From Alphaproteobacteria bacterium (GTDB taxonomy: Bacteria; Myxococcota_A; UBA796; SXON01), in the NCBI GenBank assembly GCA_040376425.1, contig JBEIQS010000002.1, positions 60,173 through 124,172 of the forward strand: DNA of 64,000 nucleotides, written 5' to 3'. The notes beneath the pieces were generated by a model, which did no database searches, was not told the DNA's origin, and saw only the letters and a program-made list of their open reading frames with translations. The position numbers were made by a program, and so were the translations under genes. Positions within the stretch are counted from its first letter, which is position 1; each line of letters begins with the position of its first letter. This document shows positions 2,179 to 47,061 of the stretch, piece after piece.

Positions 2179-3582
2179 TTGGACGCTCAGTCCAGGCCCT
2201 TGACAGGTAAACAGATGCGACCGGACGAGTTTGTGGTAGTTCCCGATGGATGGCTTTCGCGGGGACAGGCTTTTGTGCGGGGCGATGGCGCGCAGTTGGT
2301 AATCCCGGGCGGGATTCCCGGAGAGCGGGTGCGCGTCCGTGTGACCTCGCGAACGCCACATCAGGTCTTCGGCAAGGTGATGGACCCCATCCTGGCCCCT
2401 CACCCGGACCGGGTGGCGCCGCCCTGCGAGCGCCTGCCCTATTGTGGGCGTTGTACCTTGATGCATCTGAACGACCGGGGCATCGACAGCGCCCAGCGCA
2501 GCATCATCGAGCTGGCCCTGCGTGAAGCGGGCGTGCAGCCCAAGCTGGAGCCCATCGTCCACAGCCACCAACAGGACAGCATCCACAACATCGAGCTGCT
2601 GGCCGGCTACTCGGACGAAGGCAGCCCGCGACTGGGCGTGACCGCCGCCAAGGGGGGACTGATCCCCATCCCGCTCTGCAACCTGGTGACCCCGGTGCTG
2701 CGCGAGATTATGAAGGTGGCAGCCCACCATATGCGCGCGCTGGAGATCCGCCCGGCCGACGGTCGCGGCGGTACGCTGCGCCGTATCCGCGCCATGCAGG
2801 TGCCGGGCAGCGAGGAAGTGATCCTGGTTCTGGGGACCGTGCGGAAAAATCCGATCCTGCGCGACTATGCCGTGGCGATGGGGGCCGCTGTTCCCCAGCT
2901 TGCGTCCGTCTATCTGCACCGGGAAGAGGACGATCCGACCGGGGACGATCTCTTCCTCACCTACGGCAAGCCGGCCATTGAATGGTCGGCGGGCTGGCTG
3001 CGTCTGAAGGTGGGCCCCAAGGACCCCATGCCGGCGCATCCCACCCTGGCGCTGAAGATGGCCGAAGACGTGGTAACGGCGTTGAACCCCCAAAAAGGTG
3101 ATGCCGTCGTGGATATCGGCGCGGGCCTGGGGCTGCGCACCATGCTGTTGGCCAAGAAGTCAGGCTGGGCTTTGGGCGTGGAGTCCTCCGAGGACGCGGT
3201 GCGGCATGCGCGCGAAAATGCTTCTGCAAATCAGGTTTCTGCCGAGTTCTTTGAAGGCCCGGTCACCGAGGCTCTGGAGAGTCCGCGCCTGGCCGGTCTG
3301 CGGCCGCTGGTCTACCTGGACGCGGAGCGCCGTGGTCTGGAGGGCGAGGTATTGACGGCGCTGGAGCAGCTCTCCCCCCGTCGGATCGCGCTGGCATGCA
3401 CCAACCCGCGCGCCCTGGCGCGGGATATCGCCCTGCTTTCGGGCAAGGGCTATGATCTTCGCCGCATTGTGTCGTATGATGTGTCGCCCTTCACCCCCTT
3501 CGTCGAGAGTGTGGCGCTGCTGGTTTCCCGCGATCTCCGCGGACCCGAGCGCCGTGCCCCTCAGCGGCGGACGGTGCGCTGA
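2179..3582 (+). CDS. TrmA/RlmD (RumA)-family RNA (uracil-5)-methyltransferase
   Basis: TRAM-like N-terminus, Cys cluster CERLPYCGRC...CNL, SAM motif VVDIGAGLGLRT, and a nucleophile-Cys region LACTNPRALARD. The start is uncertain; ATG 2215 is also possible. Confidence 0.7.
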   Translation: MDAQSRPLTGKQMRPDEFVVVPDGWLSRGQAFVRGDGAQLVIPGGIPGERVRVRVTSRTPHQVFGKVMDPILAPHPDRVAPPCERLPYCGRCTLMHLNDRGIDSAQRSIIELALREAGVQPKLEPIVHSHQQDSIHNIELLAGYSDEGSPRLGVTAAKGGLIPIPLCNLVTPVLREIMKVAAHHMRALEIRPADGRGGTLRRIRAMQVPGSEEVILVLGTVRKNPILRDYAVAMGAAVPQLASVYLHREEDDPTGDDLFLTYGKPAIEWSAGWLRLKVGPKDPMPAHPTLALKMAEDVVTALNPQKGDAVVDIGAGLGLRTMLLAKKSGWALGVESSEDAVRHARENASANQVSAEFFEGPVTEALESPRLAGLRPLVYLDAERRGLEGEVLTALEQLSPRRIALACTNPRALARDIALLSGKGYDLRRIVSYDVSPFTPFVESVALLVSRDLRGPERRAPQRRTVR

Positions 3583-3600
3583 CCCCCCTCGGAGGTTGCC

Positions 3601-5085
3601 TTGCTTCTGCTGCTGAGCTCTCTGGCCTTTGCCCTGGATGAAGATCGCGTCCGCGTGCTGGTTTCCGAGTTTCAACCTCGGAACGAGGACAGCAAGGCCC
3701 TGGCCTCCCTGGTGGAAAACTTCCTGGCTTCCCGTCTGAAAGAAAATCAGGACATCGAGCTGGTGCGCCCGGAGCAGCTCCCGCCCTTTCAGGACTATTC
3801 TGCCCGGATCTACCTGGAAGGTTGCCCTGCGGGGGACATGATCGGCTGTACCTACGTCGCCGCCGAGCGCGGCGAGGTGGAGTGGGCGATCACCGGCACC
3901 ACGCGGGTGACCCCCTCTGCCTCCAAAGTGCAGGTGGAAATCTTGGATATCCGCTCCGGTCGCGTGGTGGTCAGCTTCGAGAGCGAGCTGGAGTCCGGCC
4001 AGGACGAAAAATTCGCCGAAGCGGTGGCGGAGATGCTGTCCGACGCCATTGGCGGCTCCTTCAAGCAGAGCGACATCCGGCAGCCCGACCCGGAATCCGA
4101 AGATCCCGAAGGGGATATGCGGAAGATGTCGGACGACGCCATCGCGCAGCAGCTCGACTCCCTCTCCCAGGAGCTGGGTGACATCTCCACCGTGATCAAC
4201 CGCCCGAATACGGTGATTGAACGCCCCGACTACACGATGGACGACCTGGCCGACCAGATGCAGGGTGAAGGCACCAAGCCCTGGGAGCGGCTGAACATGT
4301 CGCCCGGCGAGTACCTGCGCTACAAAAACTCCGGGCGGACCCTGGATGCCTGGCGGCAGCTTGCGACGGGTCGGCAGGGGCAGCTCCTCATTCGGCCGAC
4401 GGTCGGTTTTGGGATTCAGCCCTCCTACAACACCTACTACGGGCGCTATGCCTATGACTCCGGGCAGGTGGTGGATGTGTACACCGCCCAAGCGGTGACC
4501 AACGGCTTTGGCGGCTACTTTACCGCCGGTGTCGCCTACGGTGTCCACCCCTCCCTGGACGTGGGCCTGGACTTCGGCATCGCCTCGGGCCGGGTGACCC
4601 GCGACTACCAGCAGCAGACGGTGGGGCAGACCATCCCCAGTCCGGAAATCTACGCCTTCCAGGGCAGCTCCTTCGTGTTCGGGCCGCGCATTGTCGGCTC
4701 CTTCATCCCCGTCAGCCCCATCCGTCCGGTGGTGGGCGGGGCGGTGCAGTTCTGGCTGGGGGATACGGTACGCAGCAAGGAAGTTCCCCCCGAAGGACTT
4801 GCCAATTTCCCTGCTCCGCTAAGCATCATCGCCGAGGTGATGGTGGGCGCCGAGCTGCGGTTGACCAAGCGCGTCGACTTCTTTGTGCATGTGCCGGTGG
4901 ATCTGACGGTAGGTGGCAGTATTTTCCAGGAAAAACGCGAGGGCAGTGCCGACGTGCTGCAAGCCGTGCAGGCACCGGCGGTAGGCAGCATGGTCAGCGG
5001 CGGTCTGCGGGCCGGCCTGCAGGTGCGGCTGTTTGGAAAGAAAGTCAAAAGCTCGATCTTGGATGAGATGGAGGAGGAACCGTGA
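3601..5085 (+). CDS. Hypothetical secreted/envelope protein
   Basis: 494-aa ORF with a TTG start 5 nt after GGAGG (3591-3595). Short hydrophobic N-terminus LLLLLSSLAFA. The C-terminal half is Gly/aromatic-rich and beta-strand-like. No family recognised. Confidence 0.5.
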   Translation: MLLLLSSLAFALDEDRVRVLVSEFQPRNEDSKALASLVENFLASRLKENQDIELVRPEQLPPFQDYSARIYLEGCPAGDMIGCTYVAAERGEVEWAITGTTRVTPSASKVQVEILDIRSGRVVVSFESELESGQDEKFAEAVAEMLSDAIGGSFKQSDIRQPDPESEDPEGDMRKMSDDAIAQQLDSLSQELGDISTVINRPNTVIERPDYTMDDLADQMQGEGTKPWERLNMSPGEYLRYKNSGRTLDAWRQLATGRQGQLLIRPTVGFGIQPSYNTYYGRYAYDSGQVVDVYTAQAVTNGFGGYFTAGVAYGVHPSLDVGLDFGIASGRVTRDYQQQTVGQTIPSPEIYAFQGSSFVFGPRIVGSFIPVSPIRPVVGGAVQFWLGDTVRSKEVPPEGLANFPAPLSIIAEVMVGAELRLTKRVDFFVHVPVDLTVGGSIFQEKREGSADVLQAVQAPAVGSMVSGGLRAGLQVRLFGKKVKSSILDEMEEEP

Positions 5086-6581
5086 GCCTGGATCGTCTGT
5101 GGAGGGACTGCACCCTCGGCTTCAGCCTGGACTGGAGCGCCTGTCCAGCCTTCTCGGATGATTCTGTAGCCTGGACTACGGCGTTTTCGGAGATGGCCGA
5201 GCTGGAGGGCGGATCCATCGCCAACCCCGACGAGGGGCGGCAGGTGGGCCACTACTGGCTGAGGACGCCAGAATTGGCGCCGGAGGGGCTGGGTGCGCAG
5301 ATTCGCGCCGTCGTCTCCACCTGCAAAAAGTTCGCCTTTGCGCTGAAGAAGGAAGGGAAATTCAAGAATGCCCTCATCCTGGGCATCGGCGGCAGCGCCC
5401 TGGGTCCGGCCTTTTTGTCCTCCGCCCTGCAGGAGCCGGAGGACTGGATGCGCCTGGTGTTCATCGACAACACCGATCCCGAGGGGATGGCGCGGGTGAT
5501 CGGTCCCTTGGACCTGGAAGAAACGCTGGTGGTCTGCATCTCCAAGAGCGGCGGCACGCCGGAGACCCGCAACGCACTCATCGAGGTCCAAGCCGCCTTC
5601 GGGGTGGCGGGGCTGCCCTTCGCCGAGCACGCCGTGGCGATCAGCCAGGAAGGAAGCCGCTTGTGGAAGGAGGCGGAGGGCTGGAAGCTGCGGCTGCCCA
5701 TGTGGGACTGGGTGGGCGGACGGACTTCGGTGACCTCGGCCGTGGGGCTGTTGCCGCTGGCGCTGCAAGGGGCCGATGTGGAGCTGTTGTTGGAGGGGGC
5801 TGCGGCCATGGACGCCGCCACCCGCATTGCCGACCTGGAGAAAAACCCGGCGGCGATCCTGGCAAGAGCCTGGTACAACCTGGGTGAGGGCCGGGGCAAG
5901 CGTGCGATGGTGGTGCTGCCCTACCGGGATCGGCTGCTGCTCTTTTCGCGCTACCTACAGCAGTTGGTGATGGAGAGCCTCGGGAAAGAGAAGGATCTGG
6001 CCGGTAATCTGGTCTACCAGGGGCTGACGGTCTACGGCAACAAAGGCAGCACCGACCAGCACGCCTATGTGCAGCAATTGCGCGACGGTCCCGACGATCA
6101 TTTCGTGACCCTGATCGGGGTGCTGGACGACGGCTTTGTGGGGGAGGACGTGGAGCCCGGCATCCATGCTGGAGACTACCTCCAGGGATTTTTGATGGGC
6201 ACCTGGCAGGCGCTGCAGCCCCGGCACCCCGTGCTGATGCTGACCATGGACAACGTGGATGCCTTCCGATTGGGGGCTTTGGTCGCACTCTATGAGCGGG
6301 CGGTGGGCCTGTACGCCTTCCGCATCGGCGTCAATGCCTACCACCAGCCGGGGGTAGAGGCGGGCAAGAAGGCGGCCACGGGAATATTGGCGGCCAAGCT
6401 GCGCCTTCGGGAAGTGCTGAGCGCCGAGCCGCAGAACGCCGCCCAGCTTGCGGCCGCCGCCCATGTGGATGCGCGCACGGCCTGGTACCTGCTGAGCCGC
6501 ATGGGGGCGATGGGCGAGCTGAAGGTGGAGCGGGGAGAGGAAGCAGCGGGTGATCGCTTCCTACGGGTAGACGCCGGCTGA
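5082..6581 (+). CDS. pgi: Glucose-6-phosphate isomerase
   Basis: Motifs GIGGSALGP and ISKSGGTPETRNA are present. GTG start overlaps the upstream stop. Confidence 0.85.
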   Translation: MSLDRLWRDCTLGFSLDWSACPAFSDDSVAWTTAFSEMAELEGGSIANPDEGRQVGHYWLRTPELAPEGLGAQIRAVVSTCKKFAFALKKEGKFKNALILGIGGSALGPAFLSSALQEPEDWMRLVFIDNTDPEGMARVIGPLDLEETLVVCISKSGGTPETRNALIEVQAAFGVAGLPFAEHAVAISQEGSRLWKEAEGWKLRLPMWDWVGGRTSVTSAVGLLPLALQGADVELLLEGAAAMDAATRIADLEKNPAAILARAWYNLGEGRGKRAMVVLPYRDRLLLFSRYLQQLVMESLGKEKDLAGNLVYQGLTVYGNKGSTDQHAYVQQLRDGPDDHFVTLIGVLDDGFVGEDVEPGIHAGDYLQGFLMGTWQALQPRHPVLMLTMDNVDAFRLGALVALYERAVGLYAFRIGVNAYHQPGVEAGKKAATGILAAKLRLREVLSAEPQNAAQLAAAAHVDARTAWYLLSRMGAMGELKVERGEEAAGDRFLRVDAG

Positions 6582-6722
6582 GTGGCCCGCGCGGCTGACG
6601 CGGTTCCGAAAAACTGCGAAATTTTCTACGCACCCCGGCGCTCTCAAACGGAAGGCCGTTCTTAGACGTTACAGCCCCAGATCTGAAGGTTCTATCCCGA
6701 TACCGGACCTGTTCGTCCGCTG

Positions 6723-8912
6723 TTGGTGACCTTGCCGCGCCCCCCCCAAGGCCATAGACCGCGCGCGCCATCTTTGGAGGATCCCCTGGCTACCCCTCGC
6801 TATGCTGCCGTCAGCGCCGCCCTGTCCCGTGGTGTCCGTACCTTCACCCGGCCTTCTGATGCCCAAGGGCGCCCTGCCCGCATCTCTGCCTATTTCGGCT
6901 CCAAGGTCTTTGGTTCCGATCGGATGCGCGAGCGCTTGCCGCCCGAAATCTTCCGCCGCTGGGTTGCCATTGTCGAGCAGGGGGCCCGCCCCGAGCGCTC
7001 CGTGGCCGATGCCATCGCCCACGCGGTGAAGGAGTGGGCGGTCGAGCAGGGGGCGACCCACTTCTGCCATTGGTTCCACCCGATGACCGGCCTCACCGCC
7101 GAAAAGCACGACTCGTTCCTGGCCTTTGATGGTACCGGTCGCGCGATCGAGAAGTTCACCGGCTCCATGCTGATCCAGTCAGAGCCGGATGCCTCTTCCT
7201 TCCCTTCCGGCGGCATGCGCTCCACCTTCGAGGCGCGCGGCTACACCTCCTGGGACCCGACCAGCCCGATGTTCCTGATGGACACGCCCAACGGTCGTAC
7301 CCTCTGCATTCCCTCGGCCTTTATCGGCTATCATGGCCAGGCTTTGGACGAGAAGGCCCCGCTGCTTCGCTCCATGGACGCCGTGAACCACGCCGCCACC
7401 AAGCTGCTTCAGCTCCTGGGCGAGCAGGGCGTCAGCCGCGTGACCCCCACCGTCGGTCCCGAGCAGGAATATTTCCTGGTGGATCGCGGCTATCTGGCCC
7501 TCCGTCCCGATCTGGCCATCGCCGGTCGCTCGGTGTTGGGCGCCCGCGCCCCGAAGGGCCAGTCCCTGGAAGATCACTACTTCGGCAGTATTCCCGCCCG
7601 CGTTCTCTCCTTCATGGAAGAGGTGGAAACCGAGCTCTACCTGCTGGGTGTCTCGGCCAAGACCCGCCACAACGAAGTGGCGCCCTCCCAGTTCGAGCTG
7701 GCCCCCATCTTCGCCGAGGCCAACCTCGCCGCAGACCACAACCAGCTGGTGATGTCCACCCTGCGCACTGTGGCCGCCCGCCACGATCTGGCGGTGCTCC
7801 TGCACGAGAAGCCCTTTGCGGGCGTGAATGGCTCGGGCAAGCACCTGAATTGGTCGATGGCCGACAACCGCGGCGTGAACCTGCTGGAGCCGGGCCACGA
7901 TCCGCACCAGAACCTGGTCTTCCTGGCCTCCATCGCGGCTGTCATGCTGGGCGTGCATCGTCATGCGGGCGTGCTCCGCGCGGCGATTGCTTCCTACGGC
8001 AATGACTTCCGCCTGGGCGCAAACGAAGCTCCTCCCGCGATCATCTCGGTCTTCCTGGGCGACACCCTCACCCAGATCGTCGAAGATGTGGCCGCCGGCA
8101 AGGTCAACAACAAGCCCACCGGTCAGGCCATGTTGGAGCTGGGCATCTCCCGCCTTCCCACCATCGCCCAGGACAACACCGATCGCAACCGTACGTCGCC
8201 CTTCGCCTTCACGGGGAACAAGTTTGAGTTCCGCGCGGTGGGTGCCTCGGCTTCTATCTCCTGGCCCGCGACCTGCCTGAACACCGCAGTGGCCGACGGT
8301 ATCGAGCTGCTCTGCCAGAAGATCGCCGAGAAAGGCGATATTATGGAGGCCGTGGCCTGGGCCTTCAACGCCTCGCGTGCGGTGCGCTTCGACGGGAACA
8401 ACTACAGCCAGGAGTGGGTGGTCGAGGCCGAAGGTCGCGGACTTCCCCACGCCCGCAACACCCCCGCCGCGTTGGACCTGCTGATCACCCCCTCGGCGAC
8501 CGAGCTGTTCACCTCGAAAAAGGTGCTGACCGAGCCCGAGCTGCACGCCCGCTACGAGGTGAAGCTGGACCAGTACAACAAGCGCGTAGAGATCGAGGTC
8601 GATCTTCTGCTTCGCCTCGTGGATGGCTCGGTGATTCCGGCGGTGGAGCGGGATCTGGCCAACGCGGGCGTGTGGCGCCGCGCGAAGCTGGAGGCGGCGT
8701 TGGGCAGCCTGATCGGCAAGCGCGAGGCCCTGGCCGAGCTGGTGGCGGATGCTCCGGCAGGCGAGCACACCAAGGCGGCATGGCTGTCCTCTACCTTGAT
8801 CCCTGCCTTCTTCGCACTTCGCGATGCGGCGGACGCGGTGGAAGAGCTGGCGGCGGACAACATCTGGCCACTGCCCAAGTACTACGAGCTGCTGTTCCTG
8901 AACGGCAACTGA
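6723..8912 (+). CDS. glnN: Glutamine synthetase type III
   Basis: About 729 aa. Long collinear resemblance to GSIII as I recall it (HWFHPMTGLTAEKHDSF, LIQSEPDASSFPSGGMRSTFEARGYT, GPEQEYFLVD). The start codon is uncertain (TTG 6723, GTG 6726 or TTG 6774). Confidence 0.85.
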   Translation: MVTLPRPPQGHRPRAPSLEDPLATPRYAAVSAALSRGVRTFTRPSDAQGRPARISAYFGSKVFGSDRMRERLPPEIFRRWVAIVEQGARPERSVADAIAHAVKEWAVEQGATHFCHWFHPMTGLTAEKHDSFLAFDGTGRAIEKFTGSMLIQSEPDASSFPSGGMRSTFEARGYTSWDPTSPMFLMDTPNGRTLCIPSAFIGYHGQALDEKAPLLRSMDAVNHAATKLLQLLGEQGVSRVTPTVGPEQEYFLVDRGYLALRPDLAIAGRSVLGARAPKGQSLEDHYFGSIPARVLSFMEEVETELYLLGVSAKTRHNEVAPSQFELAPIFAEANLAADHNQLVMSTLRTVAARHDLAVLLHEKPFAGVNGSGKHLNWSMADNRGVNLLEPGHDPHQNLVFLASIAAVMLGVHRHAGVLRAAIASYGNDFRLGANEAPPAIISVFLGDTLTQIVEDVAAGKVNNKPTGQAMLELGISRLPTIAQDNTDRNRTSPFAFTGNKFEFRAVGASASISWPATCLNTAVADGIELLCQKIAEKGDIMEAVAWAFNASRAVRFDGNNYSQEWVVEAEGRGLPHARNTPAALDLLITPSATELFTSKKVLTEPELHARYEVKLDQYNKRVEIEVDLLLRLVDGSVIPAVERDLANAGVWRRAKLEAALGSLIGKREALAELVADAPAGEHTKAAWLSSTLIPAFFALRDAADAVEELAADNIWPLPKYYELLFLNGN

Positions 8913-27899: not shown

Positions 27900-29340
27900 G
27901 TTGTACTGCCCGGGAAAACCGAGGCCCTCCCATAGGGGACTCTCGGAATCGCATGGGGACCCCAGCATGTGTCCCACCGCGCACCCCTACGCAAAAAACC
28001 AACTGTTGCTTTAAGCCAAGGCGGCGCCCCCCGCTTCAGGGGCAGCCCATGCCCTATTGGACCGCCACCGGCACCCCCGCCGCCGCTTTCCTTACCCAGC
28101 AGCAAAAAGAGCAAACGCACGTCCTTTCCCGACGGGCTACGACATGGCCCCCCGGGCCGTGGCCCCCGCAGCTCCTTCAACCAACAACACTGCCTTCCGA
28201 CAGCGTCCGAACGGCCCCTTTCCCCACCCCGCTCCCTCTTCTCAGCCAACATCCCCCCGCTCCCGACATCCTCCCAAAAACCCGGAAAACCAGGCAAGGC
28301 GCCGCCCAGCAACACCCGGCACCACCCCCTCCCCCCGGTTTTCCCTCCAAACACTACTCCACTCACGACAAGCCCGCACCCGCTCCTCCAAATGCGTGCG
28401 GGGGCGTTCATTTCGGAGCTGCGTCCACCCCCTCCCACCCCCGCGGCCCTCCCCATCCGCGTTTTCCCGGCCAACACTGTTGGCTAACGACGCCCCGGAG
28501 AGTCCCCCGGAAATGGCTCCCCCCGTGCCCATTTCCAGCTCGGCCGCAGCCCCCCTCTTCCGACCCACTGAGGGCTTTTTCGGCAAACGCAAACTACTTA
28601 CGACAGCCCTGATCCGGCCCTCCAAATGGGCTCTCCCGTGCCCATTTGGCGCCCCTCCCCACCTGGCCCCCGCCCCTCACCCCGCCGGGGGGGGACCCCG
28701 CCAAAGGCCGTCCAGACCCCTGTCGTAAGCACTTTGCGTTTGTCAGGAAAACCACACCCTGGTCAGAATGGTCGGGCCGGTTAGGATGTGGGGGAGGGCA
28801 GACCCCGGCGCCACCCTCCCCAGCCCCGGCGGGAGTCCCCCTCCCGAAATCCGCCCCACCCGCACGGATTTCCAAAAAGCCATCGCGATGAAAAAATCGT
28901 TTGAATGGAAAACCAACCCCCGGTCAGAATTGTGACCAAGGCGGGAGCCACCAAAGCCCCGCTGGCGGCGTGCCGCAAAGCCCCTTCTCCCGCGCCCATT
29001 TCCAATCTTCAGGTCGCTTTTCGTCGTAAGCAGAATCCACTTGATCGGAAAACCGACCCCGGCCGCCTCACCCAGCCCTCCCACACCGCGTCGCAAGGCA
29101 AATGCAGTCCGTTTTGCCGCAGCTCTGCAGGCAAAATCCCTGCGTCGTCAGGCAGAGGGGTTTTCCGCGCTCGCGTCCACCTCTGACCCCGGCGGCCCCT
29201 ACCGGGAGTGCGTCGTAAGGCACATCTGTCACGTTTTCCGGCCCCCACAGAGGGAAGCACCCCGGGGCGAAGTGGACTCCCGAAAAAGACCTTCCCGGTC
29301 AGAAGGGGCGGGATAAAAGACCCATCCCCTGCCGAGGAAG
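27900..29340. repeat. ORF-poor, C-skewed region dense in short repeated motifs (GGAAAACC/GGTTTTCC, GTCGTAAG/CTTACGAC, GGTCAGAA, GAAAT-stem hairpins)
   Basis: Exact GGAAAACC at 27913, 28284, 28746, 28907 and 29047. Exact GGTTTTCC at 28337 and 29159. GTCGTAAG at 28722, 29023 and 29212. CTTACGAC at 28597. GGTCAGAA at 28761, 28922 and 29297. Confidence 0.75.
28584..28742. repeat. 23-bp inverted repeat pair (21/23 complementary) flanking 113 bp
   Basis: 28584-28606 is caaacgcaaactacttacgacag. 28720-28742 is ctgtcgtaagcactttgcgtttg, whose reverse complement is caaacgcaaagtgcttacgacag. Confidence 0.8.
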
Positions 29341-29342
29341 CC

Positions 29343-30179
29343 ATGAAGGAAGGTCAGCCCAGCACCACCGCCGAAGCCGTCGCGTTTTGGCGGGCCCTGG
29401 AGCAGCACTATCCCCCCGAGCGTCGCATTTTGGATGATGGTTGGGCGCATCATTTTATGACCCGGCACACGCGCGCACTTCTAAAAATGAACGGTAATCC
29501 TTGGATTATTTCTCAATCTGACCATGTTTTTGGTCTGGGGACGATGGTCTACACGCTGCTGAGGCATCGCTGGATGGACCTTGCTTTTGAGCGTGCGGCC
29601 GGGCCCTTGGAACAGGTGCTGATTTTAGGTGCCGGCTACGATATGCGGGCCTTTCGCCTAAATTTTGGCGATGCGAAGGTCTTTGAGATCGATCATCCGG
29701 CCACCGGTGGCCGCAAAGCCCGCAAGGTGGCCACCTTGGGGCGCCCGGATCCTGTCCATCGGATCTCCGTGGACTTTTCAACCGAGAACCTCGCGCACGC
29801 TCTGGAGCGCGCAGGCTTTCAAAAAGACCGTAAATCCTGGTTTTTCTGGGAAGGAGTCTCTATGTACCTGCCGGAAGCGGCGGTGCGCTCCACCCTCACG
29901 GTTTTGTCCTCCTGGGGTTGTGAGGGGGTGCTGGACCTCTACGCGCCTCTGGAACATCCCGGTCTGGGTGGCTTCTACCGCCGTACCCTGCCCAGAGTGG
30001 TAGAACTCGTGGGAGAACCTGTCGATTTCCTCCTCCGTCCCGAACATGGCGAAGCCTTCGCCCGCGAGCTGGGCTTCCGCGTGCAGGCACTGGCAACCCA
30101 CCGGGATCTCCGCCTCCTTTCCCCACGCCCCGCCGCGCCCAACGAGAGCGGCTGGCTGATGCACCTGGTCCCCGCCTGA
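29343..30179 (+). CDS. Class I SAM-dependent O-methyltransferase, LCM (leucine carboxyl methyltransferase, PF04072/TIGR00027-like) family
   Basis: Trimmed to ATG 29343. Motifs VLILGAGYDMRAFRL, VFEIDHPATGGRKARKV and WFFWEGVSMYLPEAAV match my recollection of the LCM family. Confidence 0.7.
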   Translation: MKEGQPSTTAEAVAFWRALEQHYPPERRILDDGWAHHFMTRHTRALLKMNGNPWIISQSDHVFGLGTMVYTLLRHRWMDLAFERAAGPLEQVLILGAGYDMRAFRLNFGDAKVFEIDHPATGGRKARKVATLGRPDPVHRISVDFSTENLAHALERAGFQKDRKSWFFWEGVSMYLPEAAVRSTLTVLSSWGCEGVLDLYAPLEHPGLGGFYRRTLPRVVELVGEPVDFLLRPEHGEAFARELGFRVQALATHRDLRLLSPRPAAPNESGWLMHLVPA

Positions 30180-30368: not shown

Positions 30369-30470
30369 ATGACCAAGCCCCTCTCGCTCACCGACTGCAA
30401 GCGCATCGTGACCCCCTCTGTCCGCACCGGCGTGCGCGCTGGGACTGGCAACGGTCGCTTCCGCTTCTAA
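30369..30470 (+). CDS. 33-aa peptide A (MTKPLSLTDCKRIVTPSVRTGVRAGTGNGRFRF), candidate modified-peptide precursor
   Basis: Hand-translated. ATG is 4 nt after AAGGAAGGA, with a TAA stop. A paralogue lies 231 nt downstream with synonymous-biased divergence. Not in the ORF track because it is under 60 aa. Confidence 0.6.
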   Translation: MTKPLSLTDCKRIVTPSVRTGVRAGTGNGRFRF

Positions 30471-30479
30471 CAAAAATCT

Positions 30480-30516
30480 CTGCGGGAGGGAGAGCCCCTC
30501 TCCCGCAGCTTTCTTC
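30480..30516 (+). terminator. Hairpin plus pyrimidine/T-rich tail after peptide gene A
   Basis: ctgcgggag (30480-88) pairs with ctcccgcag (30500-08) and is followed by ctttcttc. Confidence 0.45.
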
Positions 30517-30599: not shown

Positions 30600-30701
30600 A
30601 TGCAAAAGCCCCTTTCGACGGCCGACTGCAAGCGAATCGCCACCCCCTCCGTCCGCACCGGTGTGCGTGCAGGAGCCGGCAACGGTCGCTTCCGCTTCTG
30701 A
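30600..30701 (+). CDS. 33-aa peptide B (MQKPLSTADCKRIATPSVRTGVRAGAGNGRFRF), paralogue of peptide A
   Basis: Hand-translated. ATG is 4 nt after GAGGA, with a TGA stop. 28/33 residues are identical to peptide A. Confidence 0.6.
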   Translation: MQKPLSTADCKRIATPSVRTGVRAGAGNGRFRF

Positions 30702-30708
30702 CCTTGGC

Positions 30709-30769
30709 GCGGGAGAGAGAGCCCCTCTCCCGCCCTCCTCTCCCCGGGGCGAGAGCGCCGCTCCGGGGA
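30709..30769 (+). terminator. Two consecutive GC-rich hairpins between peptide gene B and the oxygenase gene (attenuator/terminator candidates)
   Basis: gcgggagag (30709-17) pairs with ctctcccgc (30725-33). tccccgg (30741-47) pairs with ccgggga (30763-69), with an inner ggcg/cgcc pairing. There is no clear U-tract. Confidence 0.4.
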
Positions 30770-30851: not shown

Positions 30852-32024
30852 ATGGAAGCGCTGGCGACTCACCTGAAGCAGTTGATGGCGGCACGGCAGC
30901 CCACGGTGCTCCACCGCAAGGCCCGCCTGATGCCCCCATCCTGGGCCTTTGACCTGGCACAAGCCGCTACGGAACGTAGCCTCGCGGGGGTGCCCGGTGC
31001 GCGCATGCGGCTGTACGGCAACGGCCAAGAGCTGCCGCTGAACGCGGCGCTGCTGCCCCGGGCCGGGGACGCCAACCTCGCCGGCTGGTTGGAGCGAGTC
31101 CAGCTTCGAGATCCCGGTTTGGTCGTGAACAATGTCCAGTGCCTCCGCCCGGAGGTCTGGCGCTGGGTGCGACAGCTTCTGGGAAACCTGTTTGCGCAGG
31201 AAATGCCCGCAGGCGGTTGCAGCCTGGAGATTTTCACCGGCCGCTATCGCCAGAGCTTCTTCGGCCTCCACAAAGACGACCAGGATGTGGTTACCTTTGT
31301 ACTGGAGGGGACCAAGGTATTTTACGTCTGGCCCTTTGAAGTATTCAGTGCGCTTGCGCCGGGCCTGCAGCCCCTGGGCAACCACAGCCTGCCGGAGGTG
31401 GACTGGCGCCAGCACCTGGATCTGGCCATGCGCCTGGAGGCGCGTCCGGGCGACATCGTCTACTGGCCTGCGGAGGCCTGGCATATCGCCGCAGCAGACG
31501 ATCCCGAGCTGCTCACCACCACCTTGGGCCTGGGTTTTTTCCGGGGCGGCAACCCTGCCCAGCTCTGCTCCGATGCGGTGACGGCCGCCCTCGCCGAGGG
31601 GGAAAGCCCCGAGCTTCCCCCCTTCCAGCGGGATGCCATTCCGCAGAGGGTGGAGCAAATTCTTGCCTTCCTCGCCCAAGCTTCGGTACGCGAGCGTACG
31701 GAGGAACAACTCCTCTCCTGGCTCACCGGCTACGGCTTTACCACCCTGCCAGAACCGGAAGAGCAGACCGAGGTTCCTCCGCGGTTTCGGGCCGTTGCAC
31801 GAGGGGGAATCAGCTCTCTCCCCCGTGGATCTCAGCGGGTGGTGGGCGCCTGTGGCCGCCTCTTCCACATTCCCGAGCACGCCTTCCTCGTCGATCTTCT
31901 GAATGCCCTGGCGTCGGGCGCCACCCTGCACCGCAATGCCTGGCAGCACGACGAGGTGGCCCCTGAAGTGGTGGACTGGCTGCTCGTGGAGCTGCTGTCG
32001 GTGAGCGCGATCGAAGCAGCCTGA
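30852..32024 (+). CDS. JmjC/Cupin_4 Fe(II)/2-oxoglutarate oxygenase, ribosomal-oxygenase (YcfD/RoxA)-like architecture
   Basis: GLHKDDQDVVTFVLEGTKVFYVW (HxD) is followed about 70 aa later by VYWPAEAWH. The C-terminal LLNALASGATL...VVDWLLVELL parallels the ALDALASN...winged-helix tail of E. coli YcfD as I recall it. Confidence 0.7.
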   Translation: MEALATHLKQLMAARQPTVLHRKARLMPPSWAFDLAQAATERSLAGVPGARMRLYGNGQELPLNAALLPRAGDANLAGWLERVQLRDPGLVVNNVQCLRPEVWRWVRQLLGNLFAQEMPAGGCSLEIFTGRYRQSFFGLHKDDQDVVTFVLEGTKVFYVWPFEVFSALAPGLQPLGNHSLPEVDWRQHLDLAMRLEARPGDIVYWPAEAWHIAAADDPELLTTTLGLGFFRGGNPAQLCSDAVTAALAEGESPELPPFQRDAIPQRVEQILAFLAQASVRERTEEQLLSWLTGYGFTTLPEPEEQTEVPPRFRAVARGGISSLPRGSQRVVGACGRLFHIPEHAFLVDLLNALASGATLHRNAWQHDEVAPEVVDWLLVELLSVSAIEAA

Positions 32025-41902: not shown

Positions 41903-43039
41903 ATGGCGCTCCGCTTCGCGGACTACCGCAAACGGATGGAAAAGGCCGCTACTGCATGGATTTCCGGCCGAAATCTATTGACAGGTCAAGCCCCCTACAT
42001 CCTGAAAGACCACACTCAGTGGCCGCAAAACCTGCTTGAACCGGGTCTTGCCGGAATGATTGAGGCGGAACGTACTCTTCGCGCGACCACCGGCGCGGGA
42101 TTTCCCCTCCACAAATACCTGCACCACGGGCTCTCCAGCCAGGCCATGTTGTTCAACCTGGTGTTGCCCCTGCAGCAGAAGGGGGACATCGACGCATGGA
42201 AGGGCGGCTTTGAGGCGGCGGGGATCCCCTGGCCCGGCCCGGATGCCACGGCGCGGCTGGAGGTGGAGGATCGCAGCCTGTTCAACGAAAATAGCGGCCA
42301 ACCCACCAGCTTTGATCTGGAGATCAGCGGACCCGGCGGTCCCAGCCTGTACATCGAAGCCAAGCTGGTGGAGCAGGAGTTCGGCGGATGCAGCCTGTTG
42401 GAGGGGGGAGACTGTGACGGCGAAAACCCGGCGAAGGACCATCAGAAGTGTGCCCTGGTCGGCCTGGGCAGGCGCTATTGGGAGAGACTGGACGCCCTCG
42501 GTTTTGACCTCTCCGCAGGTCCTATCTGCCCCTTTGGCAGCTACTACCAGTTCTATCGAGAGGCTGCCTACGCCCTGACCCGGGGAGGGCACTTTGTGCT
42601 ATTGGTCCACGACCAGAACCCCGCCTTCTGGAAAGATGGCGGAGAACGTGGCCTGTGGCCGCTGCTCCTCCGAACGGTCCCTCAACAGCATCGTAGCCGC
42701 CTGCACCGCCTCAGCCTCCAGCAGCTTGCGGAGGCACTGCGCCAGACCGGCCGCCACCCGTGGATCGACGAATTCTCCACCCGCTACGCCCTGAACGCTC
42801 CGGTATTGACAGGTCAAGCCCCTGAAGACGTCCTGGCGCTGCTTCCTCTGCCCACCGCCGCCGCCATCCGTCGACTGTGGGAAGATGTCGCCAAAGGGGG
42901 CCAAGAGGGTCGAACAGCACAGACACGCATCTCCAAACGGCTGGCCGGAGAAGGGATCTTCAAGGGAGATCCACGCTGGGAGCGTGTGATCGGGTATGGG
43001 CGGGGGTTGTACTATGGGGATGGAAGCGGTACGATCTGA
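41903..43039 (+). CDS. Hypothetical protein with PD-(D/E)xK nuclease-like motif
   Basis: FDLEISG...LYIEAKLVEQEFG fits a D...ExK arrangement. It starts 4 nt after the upstream stop. Family not recognised. Confidence 0.4.
   Translation: MALRFADYRKRMEKAATAWISGRNLLTGQAPYILKDHTQWPQNLLEPGLAGMIEAERTLRATTGAGFPLHKYLHHGLSSQAMLFNLVLPLQQKGDIDAWKGGFEAAGIPWPGPDATARLEVEDRSLFNENSGQPTSFDLEISGPGGPSLYIEAKLVEQEFGGCSLLEGGDCDGENPAKDHQKCALVGLGRRYWERLDALGFDLSAGPICPFGSYYQFYREAAYALTRGGHFVLLVHDQNPAFWKDGGERGLWPLLLRTVPQQHRSRLHRLSLQQLAEALRQTGRHPWIDEFSTRYALNAPVLTGQAPEDVLALLPLPTAAAIRRLWEDVAKGGQEGRTAQTRISKRLAGEGIFKGDPRWERVIGYGRGLYYGDGSGTI
41976..41994 (+). repeat. 19-nt exact direct repeat copy 1 (tattgacaggtcaagcccc), containing palindrome TTGAC-AG-GTCAA
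   Basis: Read directly. It encodes LLTGQAP. Confidence 0.85.
42804..42822 (+). repeat. 19-nt exact direct repeat copy 2 (tattgacaggtcaagcccc)
   Basis: Read directly. It lies 828 bp (276 codons) downstream of copy 1, in the same frame, and encodes VLTGQAP. Confidence 0.85.
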
Positions 43040-43467: not shown

Positions 43468-43553
43468 CCGCTGCGCAAGCGGCCGTCGAAATTATCTGCA
43501 CACCCTTGCTTGTGGTCGCCGCCAGGATACCAACAAAAAGCGTGAGGTGTGCC

Positions 43554-44903
43554 ATGTCGAAAAGTCAGGCCCCCCAACAGTCCCACCGTTCCGGCCCGGC
43601 ACCGGCTCCGTCGGGGAACGGGGCTGGGAGGGCGGCTGTCAGCCCTACAAACCAACGCGGCAACGCCTTCGCCGCACAGCAGGTCACTGCCGCGCTGGCT
43701 GCCTCTGGAAGTGCGCCCGAAAAGAAGGGCACACCTTCGGGAACCGGCGGAGCCGCGATTCCAGCATCGATTCGCAGCCGGATGGAACAGCGCTTCGGAG
43801 CCGATTTTTCCAGTGTAAAAGTGGTGATTGACCCGGAGCTGGCGAAGGCCAGCACCCAGGCATTCACGACTGGGGATACAATCCGATCGGCTTCCTCCCA
43901 GATTCTCTCGGGGTCACCTGCCGGAGACAAGCTGCTTGCCCACGAGCTTACCCACGTCGTACAGCAACGCAGCGGACGTGTTGGAAAGGGGGATGGAGAT
44001 CAAGCTGACCCCGATCCGTCTCTGGAGGCAGAAGCCCAGCGCCAAGGCGAGCAGGTGGCGGGTGACGAACCTGCCTCGGTTGGGGGCGGCCCGGACCAAT
44101 CGGCCCCCTCCCGGGAGTCCGTTCCAAAGGCTGCCCCCACGCAATCCGCCCCCGCCCAACGCGCCGGCCCTGCCATCCCCATCATCATCTGGGGTGGCAA
44201 AGCACTCGCCGCCACCACCCTCGACCACTTCATTGACTTTGCGATCGCGGCCATTCTCGGCCTTCCCGCACCGGGACTCGCCGACGACGCCATCAACTTT
44301 GCCATCAACCTCGTGCCATTCTTGGGTGAAGCCAAAAAAGTAAAGAAGATCGCCAAGCTGTTTGAGCTGGTCGACAAAGTCAGCGATTTCGTGAAGCGCA
44401 TGAAGACGCTCAACAAGGGGGGCAAGCGACTACTGGACAACATTGTCCGCGAATCTGGAAAATTGCGGGAGGCTATCGACAGCTTGGAGCTGGAGAAAGC
44501 CAAAGCTGCCTTCGGCCGGCTGATCGGGCACGTGCGCGAAGGACAGGTGGCGGCAAAACTGGGTGGAGAGTCTGGCGAAAAACTGATATTCACCGGAATG
44601 GACAAGCTCAGGGACGGCACCAAGCTCGGTACCGACATCGACGTGGTCTTCAAGGAAGGCAACGATGTCGTGTTCGGCGAAGTGAAGGCTTTGAGCGCCG
44701 GAAACCCTGTTCCTGGCACCAAGAGCTGGGATGAGTTCATGGCCAAGGCTGACATCAAGCTCGACGCGGCCAAGAAGTACAGCGATCTGGAGGGCGTTAC
44801 CACCAAGCTCCGGTACTATGTGGACGAGATCTCTGACGAAGCACGGCAGGCGTTGGAGGCCAAAGGCATTGACGTCGTCTTGAACGGAACCATCTTGAAT
44901 TGA
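43554..44903 (+). CDS. DUF4157 (zincin-like HExxH) N-terminal domain polymorphic toxin with PD-(D/E)xK-like C-terminal domain
   Basis: Trimmed to ATG 43554. RMEQRFGADFSSVKV...LLAHELTHVVQQ is the DUF4157 hallmark. The C-terminus has GTDIDVVF...VVFGEVKAL. The 3' third is visibly lower in GC: 29 G+C in the 60 nt from 44341. Confidence 0.7.
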   Translation: MSKSQAPQQSHRSGPAPAPSGNGAGRAAVSPTNQRGNAFAAQQVTAALAASGSAPEKKGTPSGTGGAAIPASIRSRMEQRFGADFSSVKVVIDPELAKASTQAFTTGDTIRSASSQILSGSPAGDKLLAHELTHVVQQRSGRVGKGDGDQADPDPSLEAEAQRQGEQVAGDEPASVGGGPDQSAPSRESVPKAAPTQSAPAQRAGPAIPIIIWGGKALAATTLDHFIDFAIAAILGLPAPGLADDAINFAINLVPFLGEAKKVKKIAKLFELVDKVSDFVKRMKTLNKGGKRLLDNIVRESGKLREAIDSLELEKAKAAFGRLIGHVREGQVAAKLGGESGEKLIFTGMDKLRDGTKLGTDIDVVFKEGNDVVFGEVKALSAGNPVPGTKSWDEFMAKADIKLDAAKKYSDLEGVTTKLRYYVDEISDEARQALEAKGIDVVLNGTILN

Positions 44904-45547: not shown

Positions 45548-46945
45548 TCAAGCCTCCGTCGACGCCTCCGCCTCATCTGCCGTCTGCGCCACCCCCGGCA
45601 CCTGCGGCGCTGCCAACAAAAAGCGCCCCAGACCCAGGGCCAAGAGCCCGGCCACACCGCTCGCGCCCAGAATGCCCAGGCGGGCCGCATCCAGAAGCGC
45701 CGGATCCACAAAGGCGAGCTGTGCCACAAAGAGCGCCATGGTGAAGCCGATGCCCGCAACGGTCCCCAAGACCAGCAGATGCCGGAAGCCCAGCCCCTTG
45801 GGCAGCGCCACCCACCCCAGCCATTTTGTAAGATATACTACAATCAGAATTCCCAGAGGTTTGCCCAGCAAAAGGCCAAGCGCCACCCCGGGGATCACCC
45901 GAGCTGCATCGCCCGCCACACTGAAGCCGGCAATCGACACCCCTGCATTGGCCAACGCAAAAATCGGCATGATCCCATAGGCCACCCACGGATGCAGCGT
46001 CTCAATCAGCCCCTCAGCGGGCGACGTCGCTTCCCGACGCAGGTGATCCACCTCGGCCAGCGCCTCGGTCAACGCGTGCCCCTGCAGCTCGCGCAGGTCA
46101 CGCTGCCCCTCCACATGGCGTTGCAAGCCTGCGATCAGACCATCCACCCCCACCCAGGCACGCACCGGGGTCAACAACCCCAGAATTACCCCCGCGATCG
46201 TGGGATGAATACCCGCCGCATACACTCCCGCCCACAGCACCACACCGGCGGGCACATAGGCCCACCTCGACCGGACGCCCAGCCCCTGCAGCAGAAAGAC
46301 GCCGGCAATCCCCGCCCCAGCAACCGCGAAGCCCGACCACTGCAGACCCTCGCTATAAAAGAGGGCGATCACCAGAATTGCGCCCAGATCGTCGATCACC
46401 GCCACCGCCAACAACAGCACCCGCAGTGCCGCAGGCACCCGCTTTCCCAGGAGCGCCAGCACTCCCACCGCAAAGGCGATGTCCGTAGCCATGGGCACCC
46501 CCCAGCCACTCCGCGTGGTCGGCCCCCCCGCGATGGCCAGATAGATCAGGGCCGGGGCGATCATTCCGCCAATGGCCGCGGCCACTGGCAGCGCCGCCCG
46601 ACGCAGCTCTGAAAGCTCGCCATGGTGGATCTCCCGCCGGATTTCCAGGCCCACTACAAAAAAGAAGATCACCATCAGCCCATCGTTCACGATCCAGGCC
46701 AGATCGCGTGCGAAAGACCAACCACCCAGAGAAATACCCACCTTCAGTGCCCAAAAATCGGCCACCTGCCCCGACCAGGGCGAGTTGGCCAAAGCCAAGG
46801 CCACGGCCGCAGCCACCAACAGCAGAATGCCGCTGGCGGCCTCGATCGCCAGAAAACGCTCCAGCGGCAAACGGGCGAAGCGTGCGAGTTTTTGGAGGGG
46901 GGCCCATGCGCCCGGAGGGGGGGAAGGAGAAGGCGGAGCCGCCAT
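45548..46945 (-). CDS. nhaA: Na+/H+ antiporter NhaA
   Basis: VVGLEIRREI and AVAVIDDLGAILVIALFY motifs are present, with about 12 TM helices. Confidence 0.9.
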   Translation of the reverse strand: MAAPPSPSPPPGAWAPLQKLARFARLPLERFLAIEAASGILLLVAAAVALALANSPWSGQVADFWALKVGISLGGWSFARDLAWIVNDGLMVIFFFVVGLEIRREIHHGELSELRRAALPVAAAIGGMIAPALIYLAIAGGPTTRSGWGVPMATDIAFAVGVLALLGKRVPAALRVLLLAVAVIDDLGAILVIALFYSEGLQWSGFAVAGAGIAGVFLLQGLGVRSRWAYVPAGVVLWAGVYAAGIHPTIAGVILGLLTPVRAWVGVDGLIAGLQRHVEGQRDLRELQGHALTEALAEVDHLRREATSPAEGLIETLHPWVAYGIMPIFALANAGVSIAGFSVAGDAARVIPGVALGLLLGKPLGILIVVYLTKWLGWVALPKGLGFRHLLVLGTVAGIGFTMALFVAQLAFVDPALLDAARLGILGASGVAGLLALGLGRFLLAAPQVPGVAQTADEAEASTEA

Positions 46946-47061
46946 TGCGTCACCTCGGCCAATGCCGAAGAGATGGCGGCCCGACCATCCCGGATCCTGC
47001 AGTCAAGGACTGCACCCCTTCCGTGCCGATTAACCCGCCGATGTGCCGCTGTAAATGTGGA

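Follow-up and report, generated by a model that had tools for sequence, protein, structure and literature searches.

Gene content of the cluster

We analyzed a stretch of 64,000 nucleotides, called the window below, from the Alphaproteobacteria bacterium assembly GCA_040376425.1 (GTDB lineage Bacteria; Myxococcota_A; UBA796; SXON01; contig JBEIQS010000002.1, positions 60,173 to 124,172 of the forward strand). The window holds, on one strand, a gene for an S-adenosylmethionine (SAM)-dependent methyltransferase, two open reading frames (ORFs) for 33-residue peptides (A and B), and a gene for a JmjC-type Fe(II)/2-oxoglutarate oxygenase related to the ROX enzymes YcfD, NO66 and MINA53. As argued below, these genes may form a compact cluster for a peptide made by the ribosome and then modified post-translationally (RiPP), with the oxygenase acting on the C-terminal end of the peptides. 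The features are listed in Table 1.

Table 1. Features of the cluster in the window, and C-terminal parts of the peptides at related loci. A slash marks the putative leader/core boundary.
Feature	Position	Strand	Remarks
LCM / TIGR00027-family SAM-dependent methyltransferase	29340..30179	+	PF04072 126 bits, E=2e-36; TIGR00027 152.5 bits, cut-off 93.55
Candidate precursor peptide A, 33 aa, ATG ORF	30369..30470	+	Full sequence MTKPLSLTDCKRIVTPSVRTGVRAGTGNGRFRF; MTKPLSLTDCKRIVTPSVRTGVRAG/TGNGRFRF
Putative leader-end motif V-R-T-G-V-R-A-G of peptide A, codons 18-25	30420..30443	+	Includes Arg23; stretch likened to uL16 by the initial annotation
Putative core T-G-N-G-R-F-R-F of peptide A, codons 26-33	30444..30467	+	Two basic-aromatic dipeptides; boundary inferred
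Stem-loop 3' of peptide A	30480..30508	+	11-bp stem, then CTTTCTT; terminator- or attenuator-like
Candidate precursor peptide B, 33 aa, paralogue of A	30600..30701	+	Full sequence MQKPLSTADCKRIATPSVRTGVRAGAGNGRFRF; MQKPLSTADCKRIATPSVRTGVRAG/AGNGRFRF
Second stem-loop, 3' of peptide B	30706..30735	+	Weak; listed for sequence likeness to the first hairpin
ROX-like JmjC Fe(II)/2-oxoglutarate oxygenase, 390 aa	30852..32024	+	PF08007, fold, metal triad
JmjC double-stranded beta-helix core, about residues 120-232	31209..31547	+	HKD...H metal site
C-terminal domain, ROX winged helix, RRE-like	31764..32021	+	Domain model pLDDT 91
L003 peptide, C-terminal part			…HIKSGVRAGSGNGRFKY
L004/L008 peptide, C-terminal part			…AVRTGLRAGADNGRFGRF
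L005 peptide, C-terminal part			…AVRTNLRAGLSEAGKYAKFAKY
L006 peptide, C-terminal part			…AVRTGLRAGAGAGKYAGKF
L007 peptide, C-terminal part			…RIRSGVRAGAGRFAGPGRF
L011 peptide, C-terminal part			…AVRSGVRAGTLKYRYRF
L052/L053 peptide, C-terminal part			…KLRTGVRAGALNGKYVNGKY

Both peptides end with SVRTGVRAG(T/A)GNGRFRF, in which the Arg of VRAG is residue 23. Positions 30420-30470 of the window are codons 18-33 and the stop codon of the peptide A ORF. The two window copies were compared with the two copies at L001, a syntenic locus that is 82% identical to the window locus. Over codons 18-33, each pair showed 3-5 synonymous differences and 0-1 non-synonymous differences. Because these differences are mainly synonymous, both peptide ORFs are real genes under purifying selection at codons 18-33. 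Peptide B is identical to peptide P0166 of the public collection.

The stem-loop behind peptide A has a folding energy of -20.7 kcal/mol with z = -3.5, and 0 of 200 shuffled sequences folded equally well. The one behind peptide B has -24 kcal/mol, with a z of only -0.42. The methyltransferase ORF is open from a GTG at 29208, yet the ATG at 29340 coincides with the start of the L001 orthologue.

The oxygenase is a structural member of the ROX family

The initial annotation described the neighbour of the peptides as ROX-like, and Pfam, a family profile and the predicted structure all agreed. The match to PF08007 (JmjC_2) is marginal, at 26.3 bits with a cut-off of 22. A profile of 60 family members matched YcfD of Rhodothermus marinus (4csw) with E=2.9e-10 across all three domains, and its further matches were YxbC, E. 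coli YcfD, FIH and NO66. The AlphaFold model of the oxygenase (pLDDT 94.2) was used for Foldseek, and the top full-length matches were NO66, YcfD_RM, MINA53 and E. coli YcfD (E 1e-13 to 1e-17, template-modelling score 0.5-0.57). A PDB search with the single sequence gave nothing relevant, so the link to ROX comes from the family profile and the fold search. The identity is 17-19% to YcfD and 12-19% to ROX enzymes overall, and no NCBIfam equivalog matches the oxygenase.

The metal triad is H140, D142 and H211. All 60 homologues have H140 and H211, and at least 90% of them have D142; K155, the basic residue at the 2-oxoglutarate-binding position, is also conserved. The model has the three-domain architecture of JmjC domain, helical (dimerization) domain and C-terminal winged helix. 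The oxygenase is thus a structural member of the ROX/PF08007 family. An exhaustive search gave about 910 family representatives at 50% identity, and a set of 5.8 billion proteins yielded just five relatives more than 80% identical.

The C-terminal domain modelled alone gave weak Foldseek matches (E 0.05-0.5, probability 0.8-0.97) in which RiPP recognition element (RRE) domains and ROX winged-helix domains were mixed. The leader-binding domains among them were those of ThcOx, McbBCD, LynD, TigE, TbiB1, PbtF and MccB, and the winged-helix domains were those of YcfD, NO66 and MINA53. A 2025 survey described RRE-like domains fused to PF08007 JmjC proteins, with bacterial homologues in RiPP-like contexts (PMC12710340). 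This modelled likeness suggests that the leader is probably bound through the C-terminal RRE-like domain.

Peptide genes accompany the oxygenase in distant relatives

At over 12 independent loci, a homologous oxygenase is immediately preceded by a related short ORF, and a locus can have as many as 7 precursors in tandem. The oxygenases at L003, L004/L008, L005, L006, L007, L011, L052/L053 and L056 are 31-41% identical to the window enzyme, and the short ORFs just upstream of them share the C-terminal pattern of the peptides. The close relatives L001 and L061 also keep the peptide-oxygenase adjacency. Because of this recurrence, the peptides are almost certainly the substrates of the adjacent oxygenase, as judged from gene arrangement. 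L061 (380-3105) has the same gene order as the window, with the oxygenase split into ORFs of 185 aa and 124 aa; its two peptides carry substitutions where other members do not vary (V18D; A24T and F33S). Either the cluster is decaying or the assembly is wrong here.

In the closest subfamily, G21, R23, A24 and G25 are invariant in all nine peptides, and so is the Asp of an (I/L)T..D(L/C) box ahead of G-x-R-A-G. About 25 related peptides beside homologous oxygenases share G-[VL]-R-A-G as their sole invariant stretch, and their G-x-G-x-G part is variable. About 20 more peptides came out of public data in a profile search, and each of them has two or three [RK][FYW] dipeptides behind its G[VL]RAG. 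The linker after RAG varies, and two or three such dipeptides occur in every member of the subfamily. Some relatives carry short C-terminal extensions (…RFSP, …RFANG, …RYGG).

Two precursors beside oxygenases have no Arg at the leader end. In L056 the leader ends with KKKVAGG (…RIKDLDVKKKVAGG/KYTAKYGGHEGP) and the dipeptides are kept as KY..KY. In L009 the leader ends with VKSFVAG (MKLETLKVKSFVAG/…).

More distant oxygenases, with 25-30% identity, have between 1 and 7 precursors in tandem ahead of them, with the pattern KVKDL…[VI][KR]GG/…PC…. The metal site differs by class: it is HxD in the class of the window and HxG in the class with Pro-Cys cores, in a comparison made without the L004, L006 and L040 rows. 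Since HxD and HxG track enzyme classes with different cores, the active site probably follows the variable core and not the shared leader-end residue. The HxG branch comprises L017, L026, L014, L019, L022, L032, L020, L013 and L041, with upstream peptide ORFs, for example, at L028 (74-917); its 1-7 tandem precursors read KVKDL…[VI][KR]GG/…Pro-Cys…[RK]. This branch lacks the carboxylate ligand, and its substrates have an invariant Cys, two features that suggest that it may perform halogenase-like or thiolate-binding chemistry.

At L012, the oxygenase gene (2489-3766) lies between two NHLP-type precursors (1989-2441 and 1727-2068; …LEMVAGG/KGDSYDCHESKGGQNTRVEFNATVSLV) and a LanM gene (about 3800-7965). 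This LanM is a class II lanthipeptide synthetase with DUF4135 and LANC_like domains.

Genes for Ser/Thr protein kinases, FHA/Trans_reg_C regulators and DUF3300 proteins recur beside the peptide-oxygenase pair in several relatives: L007 (6187-7113 and 7597-9186, both on the minus strand), L052 (843-2414 and 3982-4998 on the minus strand, 5034-6986), L005 (1456-3636, minus strand) and L006 (244-4299, minus strand). They may reflect a regulatory linkage or just the commonness of such genes in the host genomes.

VRAG ends leaders in unrelated RiPP clusters

Class I lanthipeptide precursors of a cluster that has no JmjC gene also have leaders ending with [VI][KR][ST]G[VL]RAG. This cluster, at L057 (2243-4533), has LanC at 2368-3621 and LanB at 5509-7371 (minus strand). 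VKSGVRAG ends the leader in 3 of its 4 precursors, including P0185 (…LVLDKETVKNLKVKSGVRAG/SLIRCDTR). P0176 and P0183, which also carry the motif, have no JmjC neighbour. By alignment, VRAG sits at the position of double-glycine-type leader ends ([VI][KR]GG, or MVAGG in NHLP precursors). The corresponding site (-3 of ...[KR]GG) is basic in nearly all precursors of the distant classes too. Because the same motif ends lanthipeptide leaders in a cluster without JmjC, VRAG is most simply read as a generic leader-end motif, for either recognition or cleavage. The window peptides have an (I/L)T..DL box and a V[KR][ST]G[VL]RAG end; lanthipeptide precursors share this end, and relatives use KGG and NHLP MVAGG leaders. 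The predicted cleavage site follows from this homology of the motif. A literature search found no description of this precursor family or of a GVRAG-type motif.

In P0175-P0179 and P0182 the motif V[KR][ST]G[VL]RAG occurs twice per peptide, with a core-like segment behind both copies. Five of these two-copy peptides (P0175, P0176, P0178, P0179 and P0182) are 45-58 aa long. The segment after each copy is LT(A/D)NHNR-like in four of these five, and P0182 has SSGGGSRGL and SSRGGSKGL. On its contig, P0176 lies beside secA and a MacB-type ABC gene. These peptides look like an uncharacterized family of multi-core precursors.

A proposed route of peptide maturation

Taken together, we read the locus as a compact RiPP-like cluster in which a ROX-type JmjC oxygenase acts on the core of two precursor peptides, with a methyltransferase as an optional part, and we give this reading a probability of about 0.55. 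The leader-end motif and the RRE likeness of the C-terminal domain lead to a proposal in three steps. Each 33-residue peptide would consist of a leader of about residues 1-25, with an (I/L)-T-x-x-D-(L/C) box and the end V-R-T-G-V-R-A-G, and a core formed by the last eight residues, T/A-G-N-G-R-F-R-F. The leader would dock on the oxygenase, probably via the RRE-like winged helix. The Fe(II)/2-oxoglutarate JmjC site would then oxidize the core, and the likeliest reaction is that a side chain of the basic-aromatic dipeptides, Arg30/Arg32 or Phe31/Phe33, becomes hydroxylated. In this lineage only, the LCM-type methyltransferase may methyl-esterify a carboxylate or methylate the new hydroxyl group. 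Homology of the motif suggests that an enzyme whose gene lies elsewhere would cut off the leader behind A-G.

The target is placed in the core because L056 and L009 keep the enzyme without the Arg, because L056 keeps KY..KY, and because the metal site varies with the class of the core.

Several observations weigh against this proposal. Arg23 is invariant throughout the closest peptide subfamily. Between paralogues, the N-terminal half of the peptides is more variable than the C-terminal half, which includes VRTGVRAG; this stronger conservation would likewise suit a modification within the motif. The C-terminal domain resembles RRE domains weakly, at E values not below 0.05. A search around the window cluster for a C39 peptidase, a PCAT exporter (an ABC exporter that carries its own leader-cleaving peptidase) or any other protease came up empty. 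The methyltransferase does not consistently accompany the peptide-oxygenase pair, and its co-occurrence is synteny within one lineage.

The oxygenase could also act on the core in another way: in the [RK][FY] repeats, it might join the neighbouring basic and aromatic side chains by a cross-link, desaturate them or rearrange them oxidatively in some other manner. The conserved feature of the core is a strict basic-then-aromatic order in two or three repeats, and its tolerance of K/R and of F/Y/W would suit a pairwise reaction. In addition, B12-radical-SAM genes lie near some relatives (L007, L024, L025 and L031), an echo of biphenomycin-type F-R-F chemistry (PMC12257519). No biphenomycin-type FHAFRF or YHxYxY precursors were found near the relatives with these neighbours. 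Against this reading, no radical-SAM gene adjoins the cluster in the window. The characterized ROX and RiPP JmjC enzymes cited here are all hydroxylases (PMC5862942, PMC12707348, PMC11575548), and the canonical HxD...H triad gives no sign of unusual chemistry. We therefore regard such a rearrangement as unlikely compared with hydroxylation of the core.

Resemblance to the Arg81 loop of uL16

The initial annotation had likened the peptides to the loop of ribosomal protein uL16 that is hydroxylated by YcfD/RoxA, and had named Arg23 as the site of the ROX-like enzyme. The sequence likeness itself is real: G-V-R-A-G-(T/A)-G-N-G, with the V-R-x-G-x-G-x-G spacing around uL16 Arg81, is present in both ORFs. 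The E. coli uL16 sequence used for this likeness also proved correct. It matches the PDB uL16 chains over residues 1-136 (291.9 bits), and residue 81 is Arg in PLAVRMGKGKGNVEYW.

The best local alignment of peptide and uL16 is indeed at the Arg81 loop (VRAGTGNG against VRMGKGKG) with a score of 27. This score was reached by 11.7% of shuffled peptides (p about 0.12), so the overall similarity is not significant. In the shuffled peptides, the pattern R.G.G.G, which was picked post hoc, occurred in 0.36%, VR.G.G.G in 0.04%, and the family-conserved part [VILA]R.G in 12.9%. The resemblance is thus only modestly beyond chance. The uL16 loop signature is R-M-G-x-[GR]-K-G (PROSITE PS00701). Compared with the uL16 loop, R-A-G-T/A-G-N-G of the peptides matches the Arg and three Gly, and leaves Met82 and Lys86 unmatched. 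The G-x-G-x-G spacing is confined to the near relatives of the window. It is lost in L004, L005, L011, L052, P0157, P0161, P0163 and P0165, and the variants include RAGADNG, RAGLSEAG, RAGTLKY, RAGALNG and RAGQLRY. As a whole, V-R-x-G-x-G-x-G is neither conserved across the enzyme-peptide pairs nor specific to them.

In YcfD_RM, the pocket for the target Arg is formed by D118, M120, Y137 and S208 (PMC5862942). In the alignment of the family profile with 4csw, these residues correspond to Ile/Leu127, Thr129, Gln144 and Gly/Ala226; at about 17% identity the register is uncertain, and this is weak evidence.

Two readings place the modification on Arg23, and we consider both improbable. In the first, the Arg of G-[VL]-R-A-G would itself be hydroxylated, and ROX-type enzymes would share an ancestral preference for Arg in a [VL]-R-x-G loop. 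Ribosomal-protein hydroxylases and peptide hydroxylases would then be two branches of one substrate-recognition lineage. If so, the peptides would be the first free-standing bacterial ROX substrates, with hydroxy-Arg marking the leader or recognition motif rather than the core, and either the ROX winged helix would derive from a RiPP leader-binding RRE domain put to new use, or the RRE domain from the winged helix.

In the second, the peptides would be free-standing mimics of the uL16 loop, and the enzyme would hydroxylate C3 of Arg23 as YcfD does that of Arg81. The spacing in both window peptides, the rarity of R.G.G.G in shuffled peptides and the uL16 arginyl hydroxylases among the closest solved relatives of the enzyme speak for such mimicry, as do the invariant G[VL]RAG of the closest subfamily and the near-universal basic residue at -3 in distant classes. 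Against it stand the variable G-x-G-x-G, the absence of the Met and Lys of the uL16 signature and the insignificant overall similarity. Moreover, the enzyme is present at L056 (VAGG) and L009 (FVAG) where the Arg is missing, LanB/LanC clusters that have no JmjC gene use the motif at leader ends, other peptide families have it too, and the Arg-pocket residues are unconserved in the low-identity alignment. The idea of a ribosomal-loop mimic is probably wrong. As for Arg23 as the modified residue, the ROX fold, the peptide-enzyme pairing and the invariance of Arg23 in the closest subfamily all stood, but the motif proved to be shared outside JmjC contexts and the Arg is absent from two precursors.

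It is very unlikely that the oxygenase is a housekeeping uL16 hydroxylase (a ycfD orthologue) beside small ORFs that are unrelated or act as intracellular decoys or regulators: the ROX fold, the lack of a protease or exporter in the cluster and the recurrent Ser/Thr kinase and FHA regulator genes near relatives would suit it, but the identity to YcfD is only 17-19% without an equivalog match, the peptide genes are tandem-duplicated and in distant taxa always adjoin the enzyme, relatives lie within lanthipeptide clusters, and a family so patchy, with only five relatives above 80% identity, does not look like a housekeeping gene.

The methyltransferase belongs to one lineage

LCM enzymes are carboxyl methyltransferases, and the upstream gene is a strong match to the LCM family (PF04072; LCMT1/PPM1; TIGR00027). 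The closest solved structures are ML2640 and Rv0731c. When 51 related loci were searched with tblastn, the methyltransferase was found only in L001. Otherwise it occurs only in L061 and L062, which are of the same lineage and share the flanking genes of the window. The methyltransferase is therefore an accessory gene of this lineage only.

The initial annotation had proposed the C-terminal carboxylate of …GRFRF as a second target. By adjacency, methyl-esterification of the C-terminus of …RFRF is plausible in this clade. Relatives carry C-terminal extensions, thus a free Phe33 carboxylate is not a requirement of the family.

Comparison with known systems

YcfD/RoxA, the C3-hydroxylase of uL16 Arg81 in E. 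coli and Rhodothermus marinus, and NO66 and MINA53 have the same three-domain architecture, HxD...H triad and PF08007 domain as the window enzyme. In contrast to them, the window enzyme is only 12-19% identical, does not appear to keep the Arg-pocket residues in a low-identity profile alignment of uncertain register, and belongs to a family that is paired with small peptide genes and sometimes lies inside lanthipeptide clusters. The genomic context of the family points to peptide substrates instead of uL16. The oxygenase would be functionally like the JmjC hydroxylases recently found to tailor RiPPs, and not a ribosomal-protein hydroxylase.

In biphenomycin biosynthesis, the JmjC/cupin enzymes BipG, BpmG and PbsQ hydroxylate the gamma position of the central residue of F-R-F after conversion of Arg to Orn (PMC12707348, PMC12257519). 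Like them, the window enzyme is a JmjC Fe(II)/2-oxoglutarate oxygenase paired with a ribosomal precursor, here ending with …R-F-R-F. Biphenomycin clusters need an MNIO (multinuclear non-haem iron oxidase) together with a partner protein, and besides these an arginase, a TldD protease and a B12-radical-SAM enzyme (PMC12707348, PMC12257519). None of these adjoins the window cluster, and the family motif consists of [RK][FY] repeats, not FHAFRF.

TcaO, a PF08007 cupin, dihydroxylates Ile of thiocupinamide (bioRxiv 10.64898/2026.01.07.698260), and the JmjC enzyme CzlI hydroxylates Phe of curacozole (PMC11575548). These are likewise YcfD-family or JmjC oxygenases that tailor RiPPs by hydroxylating unactivated side chains. 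However, TcaO and CzlI are accessories in large multi-enzyme clusters (thioamitide and cyanobactin-like), whereas the window oxygenase is the only enzyme conserved with its peptides.

Double-glycine-type leaders end with …GG, …GA or …AG, as in the NHLP/Nif11 precursors and the 'KGG' precursors of Bacteroidota/Acidobacteriota, and the (I/L)T..DL box and V-R-A-G end of the window peptides align with KVKDL…[VI][KR]GG. Compared with class I lanthipeptide leaders, the end is identical in form to the VKSGVRAG of LanB/LanC-associated precursors. Unlike these systems, the window cluster has no C39 peptidase, PCAT exporter or other protease nearby, and cleavage at A-G is proposed from the motif.

JmjC/PF08007 hydroxylases have been recognized only recently as RiPP tailoring enzymes, and hitherto as accessories in large clusters. 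New here are a ROX-type oxygenase as the sole enzyme conserved with the precursors, an undescribed precursor family with a G[VL]RAG end and basic-aromatic repeats, and the recognition of V[KR][ST]G[VL]RAG as a leader-end motif common to different RiPP classes. With about 910 clusters at 50% identity, the oxygenases form a large family, which serves several precursor types. The peptide-oxygenase pair offers a tractable two-gene system for the roles of bacterial ROX-like enzymes beyond the ribosome, for the winged helix as a leader binder and for the purpose of the widespread VKSGVRAG motif. The probable failure of the uL16-loop idea is worth knowing ahead of experiments centred on Arg23 alone.

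Other features of the window

The cluster is flanked by genes unrelated to peptide maturation. Upstream are HEAT-repeat and DUF6992 proteins, and downstream, on the opposite strand, is a PBP1C/alpha-2-macroglobulin pair. A region of about 1.3 kb upstream of the methyltransferase (27900-29250) is strongly C-rich on the plus strand, with GC skew down to -0.46. It contains no convincing ORF and is collinear with L001 from 28223 on. Rfam and tandem-repeat searches of this region and of the peptide region found nothing.

A few kb past the alpha-2-macroglobulin gene are genes for a REase-ARP/PD-(D/E)XK nuclease (41903-43039, plus strand) and an eCIS_core-domain protein (43506-44903, plus strand). 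An nhaA-I riboswitch (46971-47017, minus strand; 47.2 bits, gathering score 37) lies directly upstream of the gene for the Na+/H+ antiporter NhaA (45548-46945, minus strand), which is the expected arrangement.

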